Positions 2,936 to 34,637 of a DNA stretch of 55,728 nt are shown piece after piece. The DNA is from Ruminococcus sp. Its GTDB lineage: Bacteria; Bacillota; Clostridia; Oscillospirales; Ruminococcaceae. A program made the translations under genes and the position numbers. The stretch spans positions 1-55,728 of the forward strand of contig JAJQGV010000145.1 of assembly GCA_021200215.1 (NCBI GenBank), written 5' to 3'. The notes beneath the pieces are model-generated. The model did not search any database. It saw only the letters and a list, made by a program, of their open reading frames with translations, and was not told where the DNA came from. Numbering within the stretch: the first letter of the stretch is position 1; every line of letters starts with the position of its first letter.

Positions 2936-3031
2936 TATTTTAATCAATTTCAGCAATCTATCCTCTGCTTTTAAAGTAGGGGATAAATTACGTCTATAAT
3001 ATTGACAAAATATGTATTAAATACTAATACT

Positions 3032-3132
3032 ATGAAGTTTCATAAACCATCTTGCCGAGATGTTGAAAAGATATCTCAAGAGATGATGTAATCGCACAAG
3101 GTTATGACCCATGTGGGCATTGTAACCCTTAA
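3032..3132 (+). pseudogene. Frameshifted remnant of a small Cys-rich (Ada-like Zn-binding type) domain
   Basis: Frame 1 gives MKFHKPSCRDVEKISQEMM*. The next frame continues DDVIAQGYDPCGHCNP*. Together these resemble the FHxPxC...GYxPCxxCxP module, interrupted. Confidence 0.3.
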
Positions 3133-3172
3133 TTGATATATACTGTTTGCGTGAGTTGAAACAATCAAAGTA

Positions 3173-3204: not shown

Positions 3205-3313
3205 ATATATGTTATAATATCACAATAGTTATTATATGTTGTTACTCGATAATTTCACAAAGTGCTAAATACATACTCAGTATACGTGGATTAACTAGCA
3301 GGAAATACTAATC

Positions 3314-3347
3314 TTTTTTCAATCCTTACTGCTGTTAAGTTTCCTTT
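3314..3347 (-). repeat. Mini-copy of the structured repeat family (ends only), directly behind the dnaJ stop
   Basis: Minus strand reads AAAAAGGAAACTTAACAGCAGTAAGGATTGAAAAAAG. It matches the AAAAGGAAACTTAACGGCAGT and GGATTGAAA segments of the copies at 6793-6970 and 33851-34022. Confidence 0.6.
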
Positions 3348-4529
3348 TTAACCGAGTGTATTAAACTTATCCTTTAAATCGTCCATGAAGTTTTTAATCT
3401 TATTAGAGAAGTTACTTCTCTTAGCGTAGTTATTTTCACTTATAGAATTATCAAACTCTTTTAATAATTCTTTCTGTTTCTTAGTTAGATTCTTAGGTAC
3501 TTCGACATTTACGATAACGTATTGGTCACCCCTATCGGAACGATTTATCTTTTGAACGCCTTTACCTTTTAACCTAAACTTAGTGCCGTTTTGAGTACCT
3601 TCAGCGATGTTATACTTAACATTACCATCTATAGTTGGAACGGTTAGTTCTGCACCAAATACTGCTTGAGCGAAGGTAATAGGCATCTCACAATAGATAT
3701 CATATCTATCACGTTGGAATATACTGCTATTCTTAACATTTACAGTTACTAATAGGTCACCATTTCTACCACCATTCACACCTGCTGAACCTTTACCATT
3801 TACTCTTAAGGTTTGACCATCATCTATACCAGCAGGGATATCTACAGTTATAGTACAACTATTTCTAACCCTACCCGAACCGTTACACTTTGGACATGGA
3901 TTGGTTATAATCTTACCCTTACCATTACACTTACTACAAGTTTTCATGGTAGATATATTTCCAAAGGCAGTACGTTGAGTAACTCTAATACTACCAGAAC
4001 CATTACATTCATAACAAGTTTCTGTTACACCATTGGTAGAACCAGAACCATTACATTCAGAACAAGTTTCAACACGTTGAATCTTAATATCCTTTTTAAT
4101 ACCTTTACAAGCTTCCATAAATTCAATGCTGGTAGTAACGTTTATATCTTGACCTTTTCGTGGAGCGGTTGCATTTCTACTAGAACTACCACCGAATCCA
4201 CTATTAAAACTACCAAAGCCACCACCAAAGATGTTTTCAAATATGTCACCCATGTCACCGAATGGATTTCCTCCAGAATAGCCACCACCTTGATAGTTAG
4301 GGTCTACACCTGCATGACCAAATTGGTCATATCTAGCCTTTTTAGAACTGTCAGAAAGTACTTCATAAGCCTCATTAACCTCTTTAAACTTTTCAGCACA
4401 ATCCTTATCATCGGGGTGTAGGTCGGGGTGATACTGTCTTGCCAACTTTCTATATGCTTTTTTTATCTCATCTTCAGAAGCGGTTTTAGGAACACCTAAC
4501 ACTTCATAATAATCTCTTTTTTCAGCCAT
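3348..4529 (-). CDS. dnaJ: Molecular chaperone DnaJ
   Basis: J domain with HPD (YHPDLHPDD), G/F-rich linker, four CxxCxGxG zinc-finger repeats. Confidence 0.97.
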
Positions 4530-4631: not shown

Positions 4632-6473
4632 CTACTTTTCCTCAGTAAAATCAGCGTCGATAACGTCATCATCGTTGTTACTGTTAGAAGAAGTATCTTC
4701 TTGTTGATAAGCACCTTGAGTTGCATCACCTTGTGGTGCAGACTGTTGATATACCTTAGTTGCGATATCGTTCATAAGCTTTTGAAGTTCATCATACTTA
4801 GCCTTAATATCGTCAGTATTATCAGTCTTAACAGCCTCTTTTAAAGCGTTACACTTTTCTAATATAGGAGCTTTTTCACTTTCAGAAACCTTATCACCGA
4901 AGTCATTAAGAGCTTTTTCAACTTGCATTACTAAACTTTCTGCATTGTTCTTAATATCTACAGCTTCACGAGCCTTCTTATCCTGTTCTGCGAACTGTTC
5001 AGCCTCTTTAACTGCCTTATCTATATCATCTTTAGACATATTTGTAGATGCAGTAATAGTAATGTTCTGTTCTCTACCCGTACCTAAATCCTTAGCAGAT
5101 ACGTGTACGATACCGTTTTGGTCGATATCGAAAGTAACTTCAATCTGTGGAATACCTCTAGGAGCAGGAGCAATACCATCAAGCTTAAACATACCTAGTG
5201 ATTTATTATCCTTAGCGAACTCACGCTCACCTTGTAGTACGTTAATTTCAACGGCTGGTTGATTATCGGCAGCGGTTGAGAATATCTGTGACTTTTTAGT
5301 AGGGATAGTGGTATTTCTTTCAATGATTTTAGTACAAACACCACCCATAGTTTCAAGACCTAGTGAAAGTGGAGTAACATCTAATAGTAATAGACCGTCC
5401 TTAACATCACCGCCTATGATACCACCTTGATATGCAGCACCTAAAGCTACACACTCATCTGGGTTGATTCCCTTAAATGGTTCTTTACCCATTTTTTGCT
5501 TAACGGCATCGTAGACTGCTGGAATTCTTGAAGAACCACCAACCATTAGAACCTTGTTTAAATCGCTTGGCTTTAGACCGCTATCTCTTAATGCTTGGTC
5601 TACAGGCCCCATAGTAGCTTGAACTAGGTCAGCAGTTAGACTATCGAACTTAGCCTTGGTTAGAGTAATATCCATATGCTTTGGACCAGTAGCATCAGCC
5701 GTAATGAATGGTAGATTAATATTAGAAGTTGGTGTAGATGAAAGTTCTATCTTAGATTTTTCAGCGGCCTCTTTTAGACGTTGCATAGCCATCTTATCCT
5801 TAGTTAGGTCAATGCCATCAGAAGATTTAAATTCAGATACTAACCAATCGATGATTCTTTGGTCAAAGTCGTCACCACCTAGACGGTTGTTACCAGCAGT
5901 AGCAAGAACTTCAGTTACACCGTCGCCCATCTCAATAATAGATACGTCGAAAGTACCACCGCCAAGGTCATATACCATAATCTTTTGGTCTTCTTCCTTG
6001 TCGATACCATATGATAATGCTGCTGCAGTAGGTTCATTTATAATTCTCTTAACGTTAAGACCCGCAATTTGACCTGCGTCCTTAGTAGCTTGACGTTGAG
6101 CATCTGTAAAGTATGCAGGAACTGTAATTACTGCTTCTGTAACCTTTTCACCAAGATATGCTTCTGCATCAGCCTTTAATTTTTGAAGTATCATAGCAGA
6201 AATCTCTTGTGGAGTGTACTTCTTACCATCTATATCTACTTTGTAATCTGAACCCATATGACGCTTAATAGATATAACTGTCTTATCTGGGTTAGTTATG
6301 GCCTGACGCTTTGCTACTTGACCGACCAATCTTTCACCGTTCTTTGAAAAAGCAACTACAGATGGTGTAGTTCTAGAACCTTCAGCGTTAGCAATAACTA
6401 CTGGATTTCCACCTTCCATTACTGCTACACATGAATTTGTTGTACCTAAGTCAATACCAATAATCTTTGACAT
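4632..6473 (-). CDS. dnaK: Molecular chaperone DnaK (Hsp70)
   Basis: [32 protein letters not shown] signatures; 613 aa. Confidence 0.98.
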
Positions 6474-6547
6474 AAAAATACTTCCTTTCGATAAATAAGA
6501 TTTCCGTACTTTACGGATATATATTTTTTTTAATTATTAGTTAATAA

Positions 6548-6661
6548 TTAATTTTTAGATACCACTATAAGCGATAAAATAGAAATTGTTAATACACAAG
6601 TTATTTCATCGCTGTATTTATCAATAAAATTTCTAACCTTACCTTTACGATTTTTATTCAT
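6548..6661 (-). CDS. Candidate 37-aa small membrane peptide between grpE and dnaK
   Basis: ATG 5 nt after AAAGGTGA. MNKNRKGKVRNFIDKYSDEITCVLTISILSLIVVSKN has a basic N-terminus and one hydrophobic helix. It is below the ORF-track cutoff and has no homology evidence. Confidence 0.3.
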   Translation of the reverse strand: MNKNRKGKVRNFIDKYSDEITCVLTISILSLIVVSKN

Positions 6662-6792
6662 AGAATCACCTTTTTTTCAAGGAGGAGGCGAATATAAGTA
6701 ATTAACAATTAATAATTATTAATTAATAGTTAGCACTCATACTCGCCCACAATTTATTAAGAGGTTGAGTTATAGTTATCTAACGTTTTTTA

Positions 6793-6970
6793 TTTCAATC
6801 CACGCTCGGTATATTATCGGAGTGCGATGTACGTACATTGATACGCATAAATTGACCTCGTATCAGTAGGGGATACCAATTTTTCTCCGCCCACCACTGC
6901 CGTTAAGTTTCCTTTTAGCAATTCATCTCGCCACTTGTACTGTTGAAGTGGGGGAATTCTTGCTGAAATT
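6793..6970 (-). repeat. Unclassified structured intergenic repeat (candidate ncRNA / 3'UTR element), copy behind grpE
   Basis: Reverse complement aligns over ~175 nt with 33851-34022. Differences lie in hairpin tips or are pairing-preserving. No ORF. Confidence 0.75.
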
Positions 6971-6978
6971 ATTTAAAC

Positions 6979-7572
6979 CTATTGAACAACTTGCACCATA
7001 GCTGGACGAATAAGTCTTTCACCGAGCATATAGCCTTTTTGAAACACATTACACACGGTATCACTTTCATACTTATCGTTTTCGCACTGTTGAATAGCAT
7101 GGTGTATGTTTGGGTCAAAAGGTTTACCAAGAGCATCTATCTCTTTAACACCCATTTTATCTAAAATAGCCATAAAGTTCTTAAAAATCATCTCCATACC
7201 AGATTTATAATTTTCATCAGAACATTCTTGAGTTAATGCACGTTCAAAGTTATCTATAACGGGCAATATCTGTTTAACGCACTCAGAAATGGCATTGTTA
7301 TACGCCTCAGTCTTTTCTTTTGTAGTTCTGTTTCTGTAATTTTGGAACTCTGCATACAATCTAAGGTACTTATCTTTTTCTTCTTGAAGTTCCTTAGTAA
7401 GGGCATCTAAATCACTATTAGACTTATCACCTTGAGCCTCATCATTACAAGATGCTTGACTTTCTTGTTCTACACTAGAATCAATATCTTCTTGATTAGT
7501 ATCTACCGATGCATTATTTTCTATCTTTTCATCATCAGTAGAGTTGTTAATATCCTTTTCTTCAGTTGCCAT
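6979..7572 (-). CDS. grpE: Nucleotide exchange factor GrpE
   Basis: YLRLYAEFQNYRNR motif and a GrpE C-terminal beta domain. The ATG at 7572 lies ~9 nt after AAAGGAAG and overlaps the hrcA end. Confidence 0.93.
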   Translation of the reverse strand: MATEEKDINNSTDDEKIENNASVDTNQEDIDSSVEQESQASCNDEAQGDKSNSDLDALTKELQEEKDKYLRLYAEFQNYRNRTTKEKTEAYNNAISECVKQILPVIDNFERALTQECSDENYKSGMEMIFKNFMAILDKMGVKEIDALGKPFDPNIHHAIQQCENDKYESDTVCNVFQKGYMLGERLIRPAMVQVVQ

Positions 7573-8611
7573 CGGAACCATCTTCCTTTCTCGCATCAGC
7601 GTCTTGGTCTGTAATCATATCAGTAATCTTTTGACTAAAATATTCTATATAAGGAATAATACGAGCATAGTTTAAACGCATAGGACCTATTATTCCAAGA
7701 GAACCAGCAGTTTTAGAGCCTTTCTTATAGTGTGACATAATCATACTAGAGTTACTAATAATAAAATCATCACTACTTTCCTGACCGAACTTAATCTGTA
7801 TACCACTAAAGGCATCATCAAGCATAGCAGAGAATCTATTCTTATTTTCAAGGAAGTTTACAATATCCATCTTATCGAAATCTTTACACGCTAAAAGATT
7901 TTTTTCACCTTGAACGGTATACTCATCATGGCGTAAATCTTTTGACATTTCATATATACCTTGAACTAAAGGGGTTAAGGTCATCATGTAAGTTCCAAGA
8001 GCAGTTACTAGCTGTTCCATTTTCTCATCGGATAGATTTTCAATGACTTCACCCTGTAGATTTTCTTGTATATACTTTGAAAAGAACTCCATCTGTTCAT
8101 TGGTCAAGTCAAACTCTAAACGACAGACTCTATTTTTAATAGTTCCATTAGAGGTTATAAGTAGAATAACGTACAATCTCTTACCAGTAGGAATAATCTC
8201 TACCTTAGATATTACTGAAAACTTAGGAGCAGAGTTAGCAACTACCACTGCACATTGAGTAAGTTCTGCAAGAGTCTGAGTTGCATACTCTATTATAGAA
8301 TCTTCAGTAAGGGTTTCTTGTTCTTCTAATGACTTATCTAACCGAGTTCTTTCTTCTACAGTTAATTCTTGAACCGTCATAAGCTTATCAATATACAATC
8401 TAAAACCACTATAGGTAGGAACTCTACCCGCCGAGGTGTGTGGTTGAATTAAATAGCCTAACTGTTCCAGTGTTGCCATATCATTTCTAACTGTGGCAGA
8501 TGACACCTTAATATCGGGGTGGTTTGAGATAACCTTTGACCCTACAGGCTCACCAGTCTTAATATACTCATCTACTACTATTGCAAGGATTTTCAACTTT
8601 CTATCGTCCAA
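7562..8611 (-). CDS. hrcA: Heat-inducible transcription repressor HrcA
   Basis: N-terminal winged helix (ILAIVVDEYIKTGEPVGSK...SSATVRNDMATLEQLGYL), operon context and an upstream CIRCE. TTG start after GGAGGTG. Confidence 0.95.
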   Translation of the reverse strand: MDDRKLKILAIVVDEYIKTGEPVGSKVISNHPDIKVSSATVRNDMATLEQLGYLIQPHTSAGRVPTYSGFRLYIDKLMTVQELTVEERTRLDKSLEEQETLTEDSIIEYATQTLAELTQCAVVVANSAPKFSVISKVEIIPTGKRLYVILLITSNGTIKNRVCRLEFDLTNEQMEFFSKYIQENLQGEVIENLSDEKMEQLVTALGTYMMTLTPLVQGIYEMSKDLRHDEYTVQGEKNLLACKDFDKMDIVNFLENKNRFSAMLDDAFSGIQIKFGQESSDDFIISNSSMIMSHYKKGSKTAGSLGIIGPMRLNYARIIPYIEYFSQKITDMITDQDADARKEDGSDGN

Positions 8612-27024: not shown

Positions 27025-28377
27025 TTGAATTCTTTTGAAGAAGTGTTCGACTGCGTAAAAAAATACTGTCTTACTTCTGGCAAGATAATAGAATCGGCTT
27101 ATAACATTTGGATAGAACCTATTAGTGCCGTAGAACTAAATGGGAGCAAAGCTATACTATTCGTTCAATCAGATTTTCAAAAAGGCATTATACTACAAAA
27201 TTTTGAAAGCATACTTAAAGATGGTTTCGAAGCAACCCTTGGTTTTGCCGTCGATATTGAAATATTGACTGAAGAAAATATGAATGAACCACCAGAAAAT
27301 CTTGCAAATTCAGAAAACTATACTACTATGCAAGATATCTCGGAAAATGAAGAGTATGACTACACCTTCGATACGTTCATAGTAGGTCGTTCTAATGAGT
27401 TTGCCTATGCCGCTTGTACAGCAGTAGCTAAAGATAATAACGGCTCTACTTATAACCCACTATTTATACATGGCCCATCAGGATTGGGTAAGACACATCT
27501 AATGAACGCTATTTCTAATGAGATGAAAAAGAACAATCCAAACTTAAATATAATATACGTTACTGGCGAAACTTTCGCTAATGAACTTATAGATGCCATT
27601 CGAATGAAACGTGATACCACCATATTCCATGAAAAATACCGAAACGCCGATGTTCTACTAGTAGACGATATTCAGTTCATTGCGGGTCGTGAAAGTACTC
27701 AAGAAGAGTTCTTTCATACCTTTAACGAACTCTACAAAGAGGGCAAACAGATAGTACTTACCTCAGATAAGCCACCTAAAGATATTAAAACCCTTGAAGA
27801 ACGCATAAGAACTAGGTTTGAATCTGGTTTGATAGCTGATGTATCTACACCAGATTTTGAAACTAGAATGGCAATAATTCGTCGAAAGGCTGAGGCTTTG
27901 AACATAAATATTCCTGACGATGTATGCGAATTCATAGCTAACAGATTAAAAACTAACATACGTCAACTAGAGGGAGCTGTTAAAAAGATGACAGCTCTAC
28001 GCCACTTTGCTGGTAATACCCCCACTATGGCAACTGCTCAAAGTGTAATACGTGACATTTTAAACGATGACCAACCAGTACCCATTACCGTTGAAAAGAT
28101 TATATCTGATGTTGCCGAAATATACAACGTAACCGTAGAAGATATTAAGTCTAACAAGCGTTCTTCACAAATATCCTTAGCAAGAAAAGTAGCTATATAT
28201 GTAGTAAGAGAGATAACTCAAATGTCTTTAGTTTCCATAGGTCATGAGTTTGGAAATAGAGACCATTCCACCATAGTATACTCTATCAATAGCATAGAAG
28301 CGTCCATAAAAAAGGACAAAAATCTTAAGCAGATTGTAGACGATTGTATAAAAAATATCAAAAATTGTGCAACTTGA
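27025..28377 (+). CDS. dnaA: Chromosomal replication initiator DnaA
   Basis: AAA+ Walker A GPSGLGKTH, Walker B LLVDDIQF, domain IV DHSTIVYS. TTG start 8 nt after GGGAGG. Confidence 0.97.
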   Translation: MNSFEEVFDCVKKYCLTSGKIIESAYNIWIEPISAVELNGSKAILFVQSDFQKGIILQNFESILKDGFEATLGFAVDIEILTEENMNEPPENLANSENYTTMQDISENEEYDYTFDTFIVGRSNEFAYAACTAVAKDNNGSTYNPLFIHGPSGLGKTHLMNAISNEMKKNNPNLNIIYVTGETFANELIDAIRMKRDTTIFHEKYRNADVLLVDDIQFIAGRESTQEEFFHTFNELYKEGKQIVLTSDKPPKDIKTLEERIRTRFESGLIADVSTPDFETRMAIIRRKAEALNINIPDDVCEFIANRLKTNIRQLEGAVKKMTALRHFAGNTPTMATAQSVIRDILNDDQPVPITVEKIISDVAEIYNVTVEDIKSNKRSSQISLARKVAIYVVREITQMSLVSIGHEFGNRDHSTIVYSINSIEASIKKDKNLKQIVDDCIKNIKNCAT

Positions 28378-31623: not shown

Positions 31624-33848
<2,225 letters not shown>

Positions 33849-33850
33849 CT

Positions 33851-34022
33851 AATTTTAGCAAGAATTCTCCCACTGTAAGTAGTGAGATGAATTGCTAAAA
33901 GGAAACTTAACGGCAGTGGTGGGCGGAGAGAAATTGGTATCCCCTACTGACACGAGGTCAATTCATGCGTACCCAATGTACGCATATCGTACTCCGATAA
34001 TATACCGAGCGTGGATTGAAAC
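33851..34022 (+). repeat. Unclassified structured intergenic repeat (candidate ncRNA / 3'UTR element), copy behind gyrB
   Basis: Starts 3 nt after the gyrB TAA. Reverse-complement match at 6793-6970. Hand-folded stems TTTTAGCAA/TTGCTAAAA, CAGTGG(T)GGG/CCCCTACTG and ATGCGTAC/GTACGCAT. Confidence 0.75.
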
Positions 34023-34082
34023 ATAGTTATGTTGTGTGTTTTACACTAAAATATTTAATCTATTAAAAGGAGATTTTTGATT

Positions 34083-34637
34083 ATGGAAAAGGTTAATTTT
34101 CAAAATGCTAAACCTATATTACAGAAAGAATATTCTATTCCACCTCATATGTATGACAGTGCTTTTAAGGATTATCAACGTAAATTTGTCTATCCAACCA
34201 ACTATATTATATCGGCAGTAGTTGCAATCATTGCAATAATAGATATAGTTATGGTTGCAACTGGTAAGTCACCAGCTTTGATAGTTCTAGCCGTACTGTG
34301 TGTAGCAGTAATAGTAGCCGTATGGTTACATACTTCTAGTGTTAGAAAGAAGTTCGTTCAAAATATCGCTAAGGTAAAAGATGAACGTCAGACTGCACAG
34401 TTCTTCGATGATGGTATAATAGTTACTATAATTCCAAAGGGAAGTACCAATGGTGAACAGATAGTTATAGATTTCTCCAAAGATAATGTAAAACTCTTAG
34501 ATAAAAACTATTACTTTATAGCGTATATAGTAAAGTCACATTTTTGCATTATTCCAAAGAAAGTTTTTGACGCTGCTGAGGAAACTACGTTATCAAAGAC
34601 TTTTCAAAAAAAGTTGGGTAGTAACTATATAAAATAA
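34083..34637 (+). CDS. Small two-TM membrane protein (YcxB-like) inserted between gyrB and gyrA
   Basis: Two adjacent hydrophobic helices (IISAVVAIIAIIDIVMVA, ALIVLAVLCVAVIVAVWL) followed by a soluble beta-rich tail. AAGGAG RBS. Confidence 0.6.
   Translation: MEKVNFQNAKPILQKEYSIPPHMYDSAFKDYQRKFVYPTNYIISAVVAIIAIIDIVMVATGKSPALIVLAVLCVAVIVAVWLHTSSVRKKFVQNIAKVKDERQTAQFFDDGIIVTIIPKGSTNGEQIVIDFSKDNVKLLDKNYYFIAYIVKSHFCIIPKKVFDAAEETTLSKTFQKKLGSNYIK

Follow-up and report, generated by a model that had tools for sequence, protein, structure and literature searches.

A structured, gene-less repeat behind gyrB and grpE in a Ruminococcus contig, probably a non-autonomous element of the IS200/IS605 family

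Within the IS200/IS605 family, elements encoding TnpB, elements encoding IscB and gene-less palindrome-associated transposable elements (PATEs) have common left ends (LE) and right ends (RE), and PATEs often carry omega RNAs that are used in trans (PMC10055086). For Firmicutes members from Geobacillus, the target motif (TAM) is TTTAT or TTCAT and the TEM is TTCAC (PMC10055086), while a TAM of TTTAA was reported for Firmicutes TnpB relatives (bioRxiv 10.1101/2023.11.30.569447). Here we describe a structured repeat of about 177 nt that is present in two intact copies, one behind gyrB (copy A) and one behind grpE (copy B), in a contig of Ruminococcus sp. (JAJQGV010000145.1, positions 1 to 55,728). 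This whole stretch of 55,728 nt, with a G + C content of 34%, is referred to as the window. Based on its clean insertion 3' of TTTAA, the homology of its LE and its absence at gyrB in a related species, the repeat is very probably a non-autonomous IS200/IS605-family member, i.e. a PATE, of the single-strand 'peel-and-paste' type.

As is the case for the PATEs of Geobacillus stearothermophilus (ISGst, PMC10055086) and of haloarchaea, the element carries no protein gene, has an LE and an RE with subterminal hairpins, is found in many copies per genome, inserts 3' of a TT-rich pentanucleotide without duplication, has ends in common with TnpB and IscB elements and is presumed to be mobilised in trans. 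Unlike these PATEs, its right end and three internal helices (P2, P3 and P4, see below) match none of the protein-coding relatives found here. It also differs in being strongly enriched directly behind stop codons, spread over gut Lachnospiraceae and Oscillospiraceae and absent from Rfam.

Insertion site, ends and structure

An earlier note on this DNA had pointed to two copies of a structured repeat, and both were recovered at these places by alignment and by the covariance model R1, which was built from 28 family members. Copy A scored 188.1 bits (E 2e-45) and copy B 177.3 bits (E 1e-42), the next match in the window being at 25.7 bits. The window contains exactly two occurrences of each of two 17-18-nt core stretches (0.00-0.02 expected). 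The copies are near-identical within the element and can be aligned from TTTAA through ..GATTGAAA; over a 230-nt aligned stretch that includes the diverged flanks, the mean column identity is 87%. The locations given in the note stand, whereas the ends had to be corrected by comparison of an empty and a filled site. The copies and their neighbourhood are as follows.

31932-33848, plus strand: gyrB (GyrB C-terminus ..NLDI*; stop codon TAA at 33846-33848)
33844-33848, plus strand: TAM TTTAA of copy A, host sequence that includes the gyrB stop codon TAA
33849-34024, plus strand: copy A, 176 nt, between gyrB and ORF184; ends transferred from the empty/filled pair
34083-34637, plus strand: open reading frame (ORF) of 184 aa (ORF184), in the row gyrB-ORF184-gyrA
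6973-6977, minus strand: TAM TTTAA of copy B, one base past the grpE stop codon TAG (6979-6981)
6790-6972, minus strand: copy B, 183 nt, inside the hrcA-grpE-dnaK-dnaJ row
Minus strand: hrcA-grpE-dnaK-dnaJ row, with the end of grpE at 6979, dnaK at 4632-6473 and dnaJ at 3348-4529

The exact ends were obtained from one insertion among the collected loci (numbered with the prefix L). The filled allele L129, likewise from a phage-like contig, reads ..TTTTAA, then the element from TCCTAG to GAGTTGAAACAA, then TTATGAAAGG.., and empty alleles reading ..ATTAAATTTTAA|TTATGAAAGG.. were found on three phage-like contigs (L466/L468/L469) with the flank-join pattern for L129 in IMG/VR. The element in L129 therefore comprises 177 nt, from right after TTTAA through the AA that follows ..GAAAC. 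No target duplication accompanied this insertion and the ends are ambiguous by 1 nt only. The ends of the element (TCCTAG.. or CTAATT.. on the left, ..TTGAAACAA on the right) are not inverted repeats.

Across 75 non-redundant insertions, the left flank consists of T (72), T (70), T or C (44 and 26), A (73) and A (71), and the flank further upstream of TT[T/C]AA is not conserved. The third base varies even inside one subfamily (TTCAAC, TTTAAC), as expected if the motif is target DNA. In all contigs read of a related species with an ORF184 of 73% identity, gyrB and ORF184 are separated by an 80-nt spacer that lacks the element. Look-ups by identical GyrB, ORF184 and DnaK yielded filled sites or contigs broken at the element and no empty site, and the flank-join search among the collected loci yielded no empty site either. 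In a closer relative (ORF184 78% identical; L266:1301-1500), the gyrB-ORF184 spacer is different and 199 nt long. It begins with TTTAA|T.., holds GATTTTAGTAAATAAGTATTC and CCTATTGACAT, and may be a heavily decayed copy.

Integron attC sites are defined by an inverse core RYYYAAC and a core GTTRRRY as inverted partners, and are associated with gene cassettes. An attC identity was rejected, as the right end (..TTGAAACAA) offers no GTTAAA as partner of the left TTTAAC and the flanking genes are the core genes gyrB, grpE and dnaJ.

The secondary structure was assessed by aligning 102 full-length matches (89 distinct) and counting pairs on a hand-set structure. Paired cells amounted to 90%, compared to 36-42% when the partners were slid, and cells changed on both sides numbered 263, compared to 93 in shuffles. 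The following parts are distinguished, with coordinates for copy A.

33853-33900, plus strand: P1, the LE hairpin TTTTAGCAAGAATTCTCCCACT..AGTGAGATGAATTGCTAAAA, with a basal and an apical stem
33914-33949, plus strand: P2, CAGTGGTGGG/CCCCTACTG, with covariation and a nearly invariant 17-nt loop CGGAGAGAAATTGGTAT
33965-33985, plus strand: P3, a hairpin of variable sequence with covariation, here ATGCGTAC-CCAAT-GTACGCAT
33988-34024, plus strand: RE module, consisting of the P4 stem CGT/GCG, a long loop and the tail TGGATTGAAAC+AT

Three helices that the note had drawn, namely the basal and apical stem, the ATGCGTAC hairpin and CAGTGG..CCCCTACTG, correspond to P1, P3 and P2 and are supported by covariation among the 89 distinct members. 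A fourth, the long-range pairing GAATTG/CAATTC, did not hold, since its outer pairs fail in 75-90% of the members. P1, which begins 4-20 nt from the left end of the element, shows GC to AU exchanges in 30 of the 89 sequences and CG to UA exchanges in 10. In P2, 97.7% of the cells are paired and four pairs show double changes; its loop is conserved even among sequences picked by their 3' end alone. Both-sided changes were observed in six of the seven pairs of P3 across the family. The 3-bp stem P4 covaries between CGC/GCG, CAG/CTG, CGG/CCG and TGC/GCA and precedes a tail of 13-15 nt at the right end. Within this tail, ..TTGAAAC is invariant over the 75 insertions, and the next two positions are A in 72 and 69 of them. 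The junctions J1/2 and J2/3, like the 17 nt of the P2 loop, are unpaired in this structure but conserved.

The halves of the P2 loop (CGGAG and TCGGTA) are complementary to those of the P4 loop (CTCCG and TACCGA), with 99% of the cells paired, and the changes seen are exchanges of GC and GU only, without a double compensatory change. The two helices are regarded as candidate pseudoknots only, because the changes are one-sided and the invariance is partly imposed by the search patterns. Pairs of the type G:U outnumber A:C pairs in P2 (58:8), in the first candidate pseudoknot (53:2) and in P4 (19:5), so that the folding strand is the one with TTTAA on its 5' side. The same asymmetry excluded a mini-HEARO on the opposite strand. 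Folding of single sequences gave no discrimination between the strands (z = -2.1 vs -2.8). A helix between J2/3 and the 3' tail was also rejected, being not conserved across the family.

In agreement with the note, no ORF, terminator or terminal inverted repeat was detected on the sense strand of copies A and B, nor was a sigma-70-like promoter. Its statement that no known riboswitch or ribozyme matches likewise holds: at gathering thresholds, Rfam models matched only tRNA in the whole window. At E ≤ 10, copies A and B gave chance-level matches only, the best being CRISPR-DR9 (E 3.5, last 45 nt). HEARO (RF02033) was absent from both copies at this threshold, and the same search scored HEARO at 112 bits in locus L128.

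The locus of copy A was also found in two other assemblies, in both with the element present. In one of them (L113:4636-4822 vs window 33844-34022), a strain with an identical GyrB, an 8-nt indel affects the apical loop at the tip of P1 (CTCCCACTTCAACAGCGTAAG vs CTCCCACTGTAAG); the longer form of the loop resembles copy B.

Relationship to protein-coding IS200/IS605 elements

The GGGATGAATTGC motif and a hairpin of the P1 design together make up the LE of both IscB and TnpB elements of the IS200/IS605 family. In locus L128, TTTAAC and a near-identical P1 hairpin (..AGCAAGAA.TCCCCCACC..GGTGGTGGGATGAATTGC) are followed by an iscB gene on the opposite strand (Pfam RRXRR 2.9e-61, HNH) with its HEARO RNA (112 bits). 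The right end of this element is a hairpin followed by ..GGTTATTGAC; the design is a hairpin that precedes about 10 nt ending in TTGAC. The same LE design was observed at 80 IscB loci with the TAM TTTAAC, TTTAT or TTCAT, and an identical IscB element was found at two different TTTAAC sites. The window element differs from IscB elements in that it has neither iscB nor a HEARO match and in that its structure lies on the TAM-bearing strand, while iscB and HEARO lie on the other.

Elements encoding TnpB (370-398 aa, ..RDHNAAINIL) have the same TTTAAC and P1 on the coding strand and right ends reading ..GTCGGAGTAGTTCAC. Compared to such TnpB elements (ISGst2 with TAM TTTAT and TEM TTCAC; L352, L357, L427), the window element agrees in the TAM TTTAA(C), in the LE and in having a structured RNA-like region at the right end of the top strand, next to the flank from which a guide would come. 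It differs by having no tnpB in cis and a right end ..GGATTGAAACAA instead of ..TAGTTCAC. The TnpB omega-RNA regions show no sequence similarity to it beyond a short stretch (AACGCAGTAGTGGTT vs AACGGCAGTGGTGG). R1 matches the left ends of IscB and TnpB elements alone at 17-43 bits; the right end has only the design of hairpin and short tail in common with the protein-coding relatives, not the sequence.

The suggestion of the note that the repeat is a structured element resembling a miniature inverted-repeat transposable element (MITE) and targeting gene ends was essentially right, given the insertion at TTTAA (TTCAA in a part of the subfamilies) without duplication and the left end of IscB and TnpB elements. 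The checks that the note had proposed gave no Rfam match, a non-random orientation and position, no target-site duplication and supported covariation. By these results, the element is no plain MITE, yet a transposon. For its mobility we propose that a Y1 (HUH) TnpA made elsewhere in the genome excises the element and pastes it as single-stranded DNA. The enzyme would recognise both hairpins and would cut after TTTAA and after ..AACAA. The two copies in the window are in opposite orientation on either side of the following gene, and each lies on the strand expected to be the lagging-strand template, a placement that is confounded with gene orientation.

27025-28377, plus strand: dnaA, followed by dnaN and recF on the same strand

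Several observations weigh against the assignment to the IS200/IS605 PATEs. The window contains no tnpA, and in about 2 Mb of sequence flanking some 170 copies, no TnpA or TnpB gene with these ends lies beside a copy. A scan of the window and of the loci up to L266 for TnpB motifs found none. The three IS200-type tnpA genes in these flanks are kilobases away from copies, and the ends inspected for one of them (L250) are unrelated. Upstream of about 40 copies, the ORFs belong to housekeeping genes, and no tnpB remnant was found upstream of the P1-less copy in L127. The protein-coding relatives match at the left end only and have different right ends; the LE and RE hairpins of the element are dissimilar to each other, unlike those of IS608; and the strand bias is inseparable from co-orientation with genes. 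Finally, the enrichment behind stop codons described below (31% vs 3%) exceeds what the target motif alone explains.

The missing cognate TnpA would also fit a different machinery, e.g. a site-specific recombinase that uses a short core common to both junctions, with the likeness of the left end to IS200/IS605 elements resulting from a chimera. In many copies, a left TTYAAC and a right ..TTGAAACAA indeed place AAC(AA) at both ends. However, the empty site has no duplicated or shared core beyond the 1-nt ambiguity, the bases after the left AAC differ between subfamilies, and the left end is common to bona fide IscB and TnpB IS200/IS605 elements with the same TAM. We therefore regard a recombinase as most improbable and retain the assignment as a PATE.

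Two further coding regions were noted beside related elements. Adjacent to the IscB element in L128 (4947-6963, minus strand) is an IS605-like unit with a Y1 TnpA (Pfam 6e-37) and its own P1-like left end (GCGAAAACCCACACGC..GTGTGGGATGAAAGC). Its 542-aa ORF has a RuvC-like GADIGT motif and no Pfam match, and may encode a divergent TnpB/Cas12-like protein. On the 209-kb viral contig L127, a 335-aa ORF (7003-8010, minus strand), by eye of the Rpn/PD-(D/E)XK transposase type, lies about 250 nt downstream of the P1-less copy.

Distribution and docking behind stop codons

The family comprises more than 100 full copies in genomes of Lachnospiraceae and Oscillospiraceae and in human-gut metagenomes. 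In species-representative genomes, an exact search with a 17-mer of the 3' part found at least about 45 true relatives, with several in each genome. The carriers belong to the Lachnospiraceae and Oscillospiraceae and comprise Diplocloster, Hungatella, Enterocloster, Blautia, Robinsoniella, Lactonifactor and metagenome-assembled genomes. Complete genomes with many copies include those of Hungatella hathewayi DSM 13479 (NZ_CP102274) and Diplocloster hominis CSJ-3. A search of metagenomes with the P2 loop added 120 further loci, mostly from the human gut. IMG/VR holds few copies, PLSDB plasmids gave no match, and among the INPHARED phages the element was found in six unannotated gut contigs only, each with plain copies. 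In human-gut Clostridia, the repeat is thus very abundant, yet it had not been catalogued before and has no Rfam family. Its annotation removes a source of false calls of novel non-coding RNAs.

Core-gene operons (gyrB-gyrA, hrcA-grpE-dnaK-dnaJ) are split by the element, and short-read assemblies break at these points. Short-read contigs encoding an identical GyrB or DnaK end or start within the element, as expected for a multi-copy repeat.

Orientation and proximity to genes were counted for 74 non-redundant insertions, with unoccupied TT[T/C]AAC sites outside ORFs of the same loci as control. Insertion and nearest upstream gene share a strand in 56 of 67 cases, compared to 111 of 238 control sites (Fisher p = 3e-8). 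A same-strand stop codon lies within 9 nt in 21/67 insertions and 7/238 control sites (Fisher p = 3e-10), and both results also hold with the control motifs TT[TC]AA and TT[TC]AACAA. For the nearest downstream gene, the strand agrees in 46 of 64 cases, and the antisense share is 16% relative to the upstream and 28% relative to the downstream gene. In 11 insertions, TTTAA itself supplies the upstream stop codon with its TAA, and many of the occupied operon spacers were only 20-60 nt long before insertion. Docking in sense orientation behind stop codons is thus a statistically real property of the family.

Since the target contains TAA, genes ending in NTT-TAA would offer an insertion site, and insertion there would leave the ORF intact. 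Copies in short, transcribed operon spacers of the same sense may then be preferentially kept, either because they are tolerated (no promoter or terminator disrupted, no terminator in the element) or because read-through is needed for expression of the RNA. The element cleanly illustrates how docking on gene ends arises from a transposon target with a stop codon in it (TTTAA).

The earlier note had also considered a 3' untranslated region (3'UTR) or small-RNA module of gyrB and grpE. This is not supported, given the related species with the element-free 80-nt spacer, and is further weakened by the copies behind unrelated genes in many genomes and by the antisense share. In a more general form, the element might be an intercistronic or 3'UTR RNA module that benefits the host, similar to repetitive extragenic palindromic (REP) sequences and bacterial interspersed mosaic elements (BIMEs), with mobility merely delivering the RNA. 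Such a module would shield the upstream mRNA from 3' exonucleases or set the relative expression of operon genes, and selection would retain it in sense orientation directly behind stop codons. The sense bias relative to the upstream gene and the excess within 9 nt of a same-strand stop codon are in line with this, as are the lack of a terminator, which implies that the element is read through, the identity of the folded strand with the sense strand and the conservation of the whole 175 nt, beyond the ends, with covarying stems across subfamilies. On the other hand, the near-identity of copies within a genome and the polymorphic insertions are as expected of a selfish repeat, deleted and decayed forms are common, and the antisense copies do not fit. 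Most genes of Firmicutes are co-oriented with replication. A preference for the lagging-strand template would therefore produce the same sense bias of 80%. Overall, a host-beneficial module appears unlikely.

REP sequences and BIMEs with RAYT, a TnpA-like protein, are likewise short structured extragenic repeats at gene 3' ends and in operons. An IS200-like HUH enzyme mobilises them, and they can influence how stable an mRNA is. REP sequences differ in their length of 20-40 nt, in their GTAG head and in their occurrence mostly in Proteobacteria, while the element has about 177 nt, a distinct LE and RE and a defined pentanucleotide target. The only REP-like forms of its family are solo modules of 37 nt. 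These (GTCGTATTCTGTGAAATTACCGAGCGTGGATTGAAAC) correspond to the right end, lie directly behind TTTAA at several sites in Diplocloster hominis (L001/L017/L045/L054/L092) and Blautia schinkii (L021), and are similar in size and shape to a CRISPR repeat or a REP.

The right-hand module and variant copies

The right-hand 110 nt of the element (P2 with its 17-nt loop, P3 and P4) are conserved, and structured across subfamilies, beyond the needs of TnpA ends. On the top strand, this module directly adjoins the right end, where TnpB omega RNAs are located. This position and the possible pseudoknot would fit an omega RNA. By analogy, the module may, as a tentative reading that is less likely than its opposite, represent an omega-RNA-like guide scaffold that serves a TnpB-type nuclease in trans and takes its guide from the right flank. 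Speaking against it, no Rfam omega-RNA model matches, and neither of the candidate pseudoknot helices has a double compensatory change. If the module is a true trans-acting scaffold, the family would provide a compact natural set of orphan guides, which could help to identify TnpA/TnpB partners in unculturable gut bacteria. The omega-RNA region of the TnpB elements L427 and L357 has, about 50 nt before the right ends, a short similarity (CAACGCAGTAGTGGTTGAAGCAGGAAG) to J1/2-P2 of the element (AACGGCAGTGGTGGGCGGAGAGAAATCGG), which could be due to chance or be a trace of common origin.

It is rather doubtful that the right-hand 110 nt with the ..GTGGATTGAAACAA tail form an undescribed class of stand-alone guide-RNA scaffold, whose partner nuclease is encoded elsewhere. 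Dozens of copies per genome would then each carry a different guide derived from the flank and be expressed by read-through from host operons only, which would explain the accumulation in sense orientation behind stop codons. Because the 5' handle region of type I-C CRISPR RNAs (crRNAs) has the same sequence as the tail, a CRISPR effector rather than TnpB might in that case even be the partner. Such a partner would link IS200/IS605 right ends with class 1 CRISPR repeats.

Literature searches for the sequence of the 3' tail returned type I-C CRISPR papers only. The right-end module, spread by the transposon, might mimic a type I-C-like CRISPR repeat that is bound or cut by Cas5c/Cascade. It would then be a Racr-like decoy, or a crRNA-like RNA with the flank in the role of 'spacer'. 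In some subfamilies, the module GTCGCACTC..GAGCGTGGATTGAAAC has the first 5 nt (GTCGC) and the last 14 nt (GCGTGGATTGAAAC) of type I-C repeats such as GTCGCGTCCTCACGGGCGCGTGGATTGAAAC (PMC8406640), with the stem base CGC/GCG placed as in these repeats. It also resembles the 37-nt array repeat GTCGCTCGGCAAATCATTGCCGAGCGTGGATTGAAAC, the solo 37-nt modules exist and the weak Rfam match is to CRISPR-DR9 (E 3.5). Solitary repeat units that inhibit CRISPR and crRNA-like regulators have been described (PMC10651486; bioRxiv 10.1101/2024.12.27.630466), which counts in favour of a mimic. However, the commonest gut subfamily ends in ..CTGTGAGTTGAAAC, so that the type I-C 'handle' GGATTGAAAC is not conserved; it varies between GGATTG, GAGTTG and GAATTG. 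The loop of 12-20 nt is much larger than the 4-5 nt of type I-C repeats. The module does not occur in arrays: no array with repeats ending in ..TTGAAA[C/T] was found near any copy (cas genes were not searched for), and the sole array beside a copy (L224) has unrelated repeats. A hairpin followed by a tail of about 10 nt is also the plain design of IS200/IS605 right ends. These differences make a CRISPR mimic very unlikely.

Apart from the solo modules, shortened and rearranged copies were observed. Derivatives with internal deletions (L014, L077, L002, L156/L208 and a second copy in L097 ending at 1001, minus strand) have breakpoints at short direct repeats within the element, e.g. TCCCCCACTTC, AGGTGG and AATTGCC. 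At the right flank of L160:6932-7107 (minus strand), the last 13 nt are tandemly duplicated (..ATTGAAAC AGCGTGGATTGAAA..). An ABC-F ATPase gene (about 650 aa) with the element immediately upstream and the right flank AACAGAAAAGGTATAAAACATGAG was found in six loci (L173, L186, L187, L209, L231, L144) with three unrelated left flanks across gut samples. This pattern points either to recombination at the element or to joint movement of element and gene.

The window itself also contains two decayed or possible relatives, which are oriented toward each other between dnaJ and a tRNA gene.

3241-3347, minus strand: decayed copy that lacks P1 and begins immediately behind the stop codon of dnaJ (3348-3350); tail GTGGATTGAA lost
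3001-3162, plus strand: possible weak relic, downstream of the tRNA gene (2863-2935); ends ..GCGTGAGTTGAAAC|AA

The copy behind dnaJ scores 25.7 bits against R1 (E 8e-5 for the whole window, 9e-7 locally) and aligns as AAAGGAAACTTAAC.GCAGT..., matching J1/2-P2-P3-P4. The relic on the tRNA side reaches 14.2 bits (E 0.06 for the whole window), with matches to the 3' tail and fragments only.

The distance from copy B to dnaK is 318 nt, counted from ..GAAAT. This AT-rich spacer (6474-6789, minus strand) holds half of a CIRCE-like site (GAGTGCTAA) and a sequence resembling a ribosome-binding site, GGTGATTCTATG, at the start of a short ORF near 6660. It also features a promoter-like site at 6592-6564 and a terminator-like hairpin at 6503-6517, which is unusual within an hrcA-grpE-dnaK operon.

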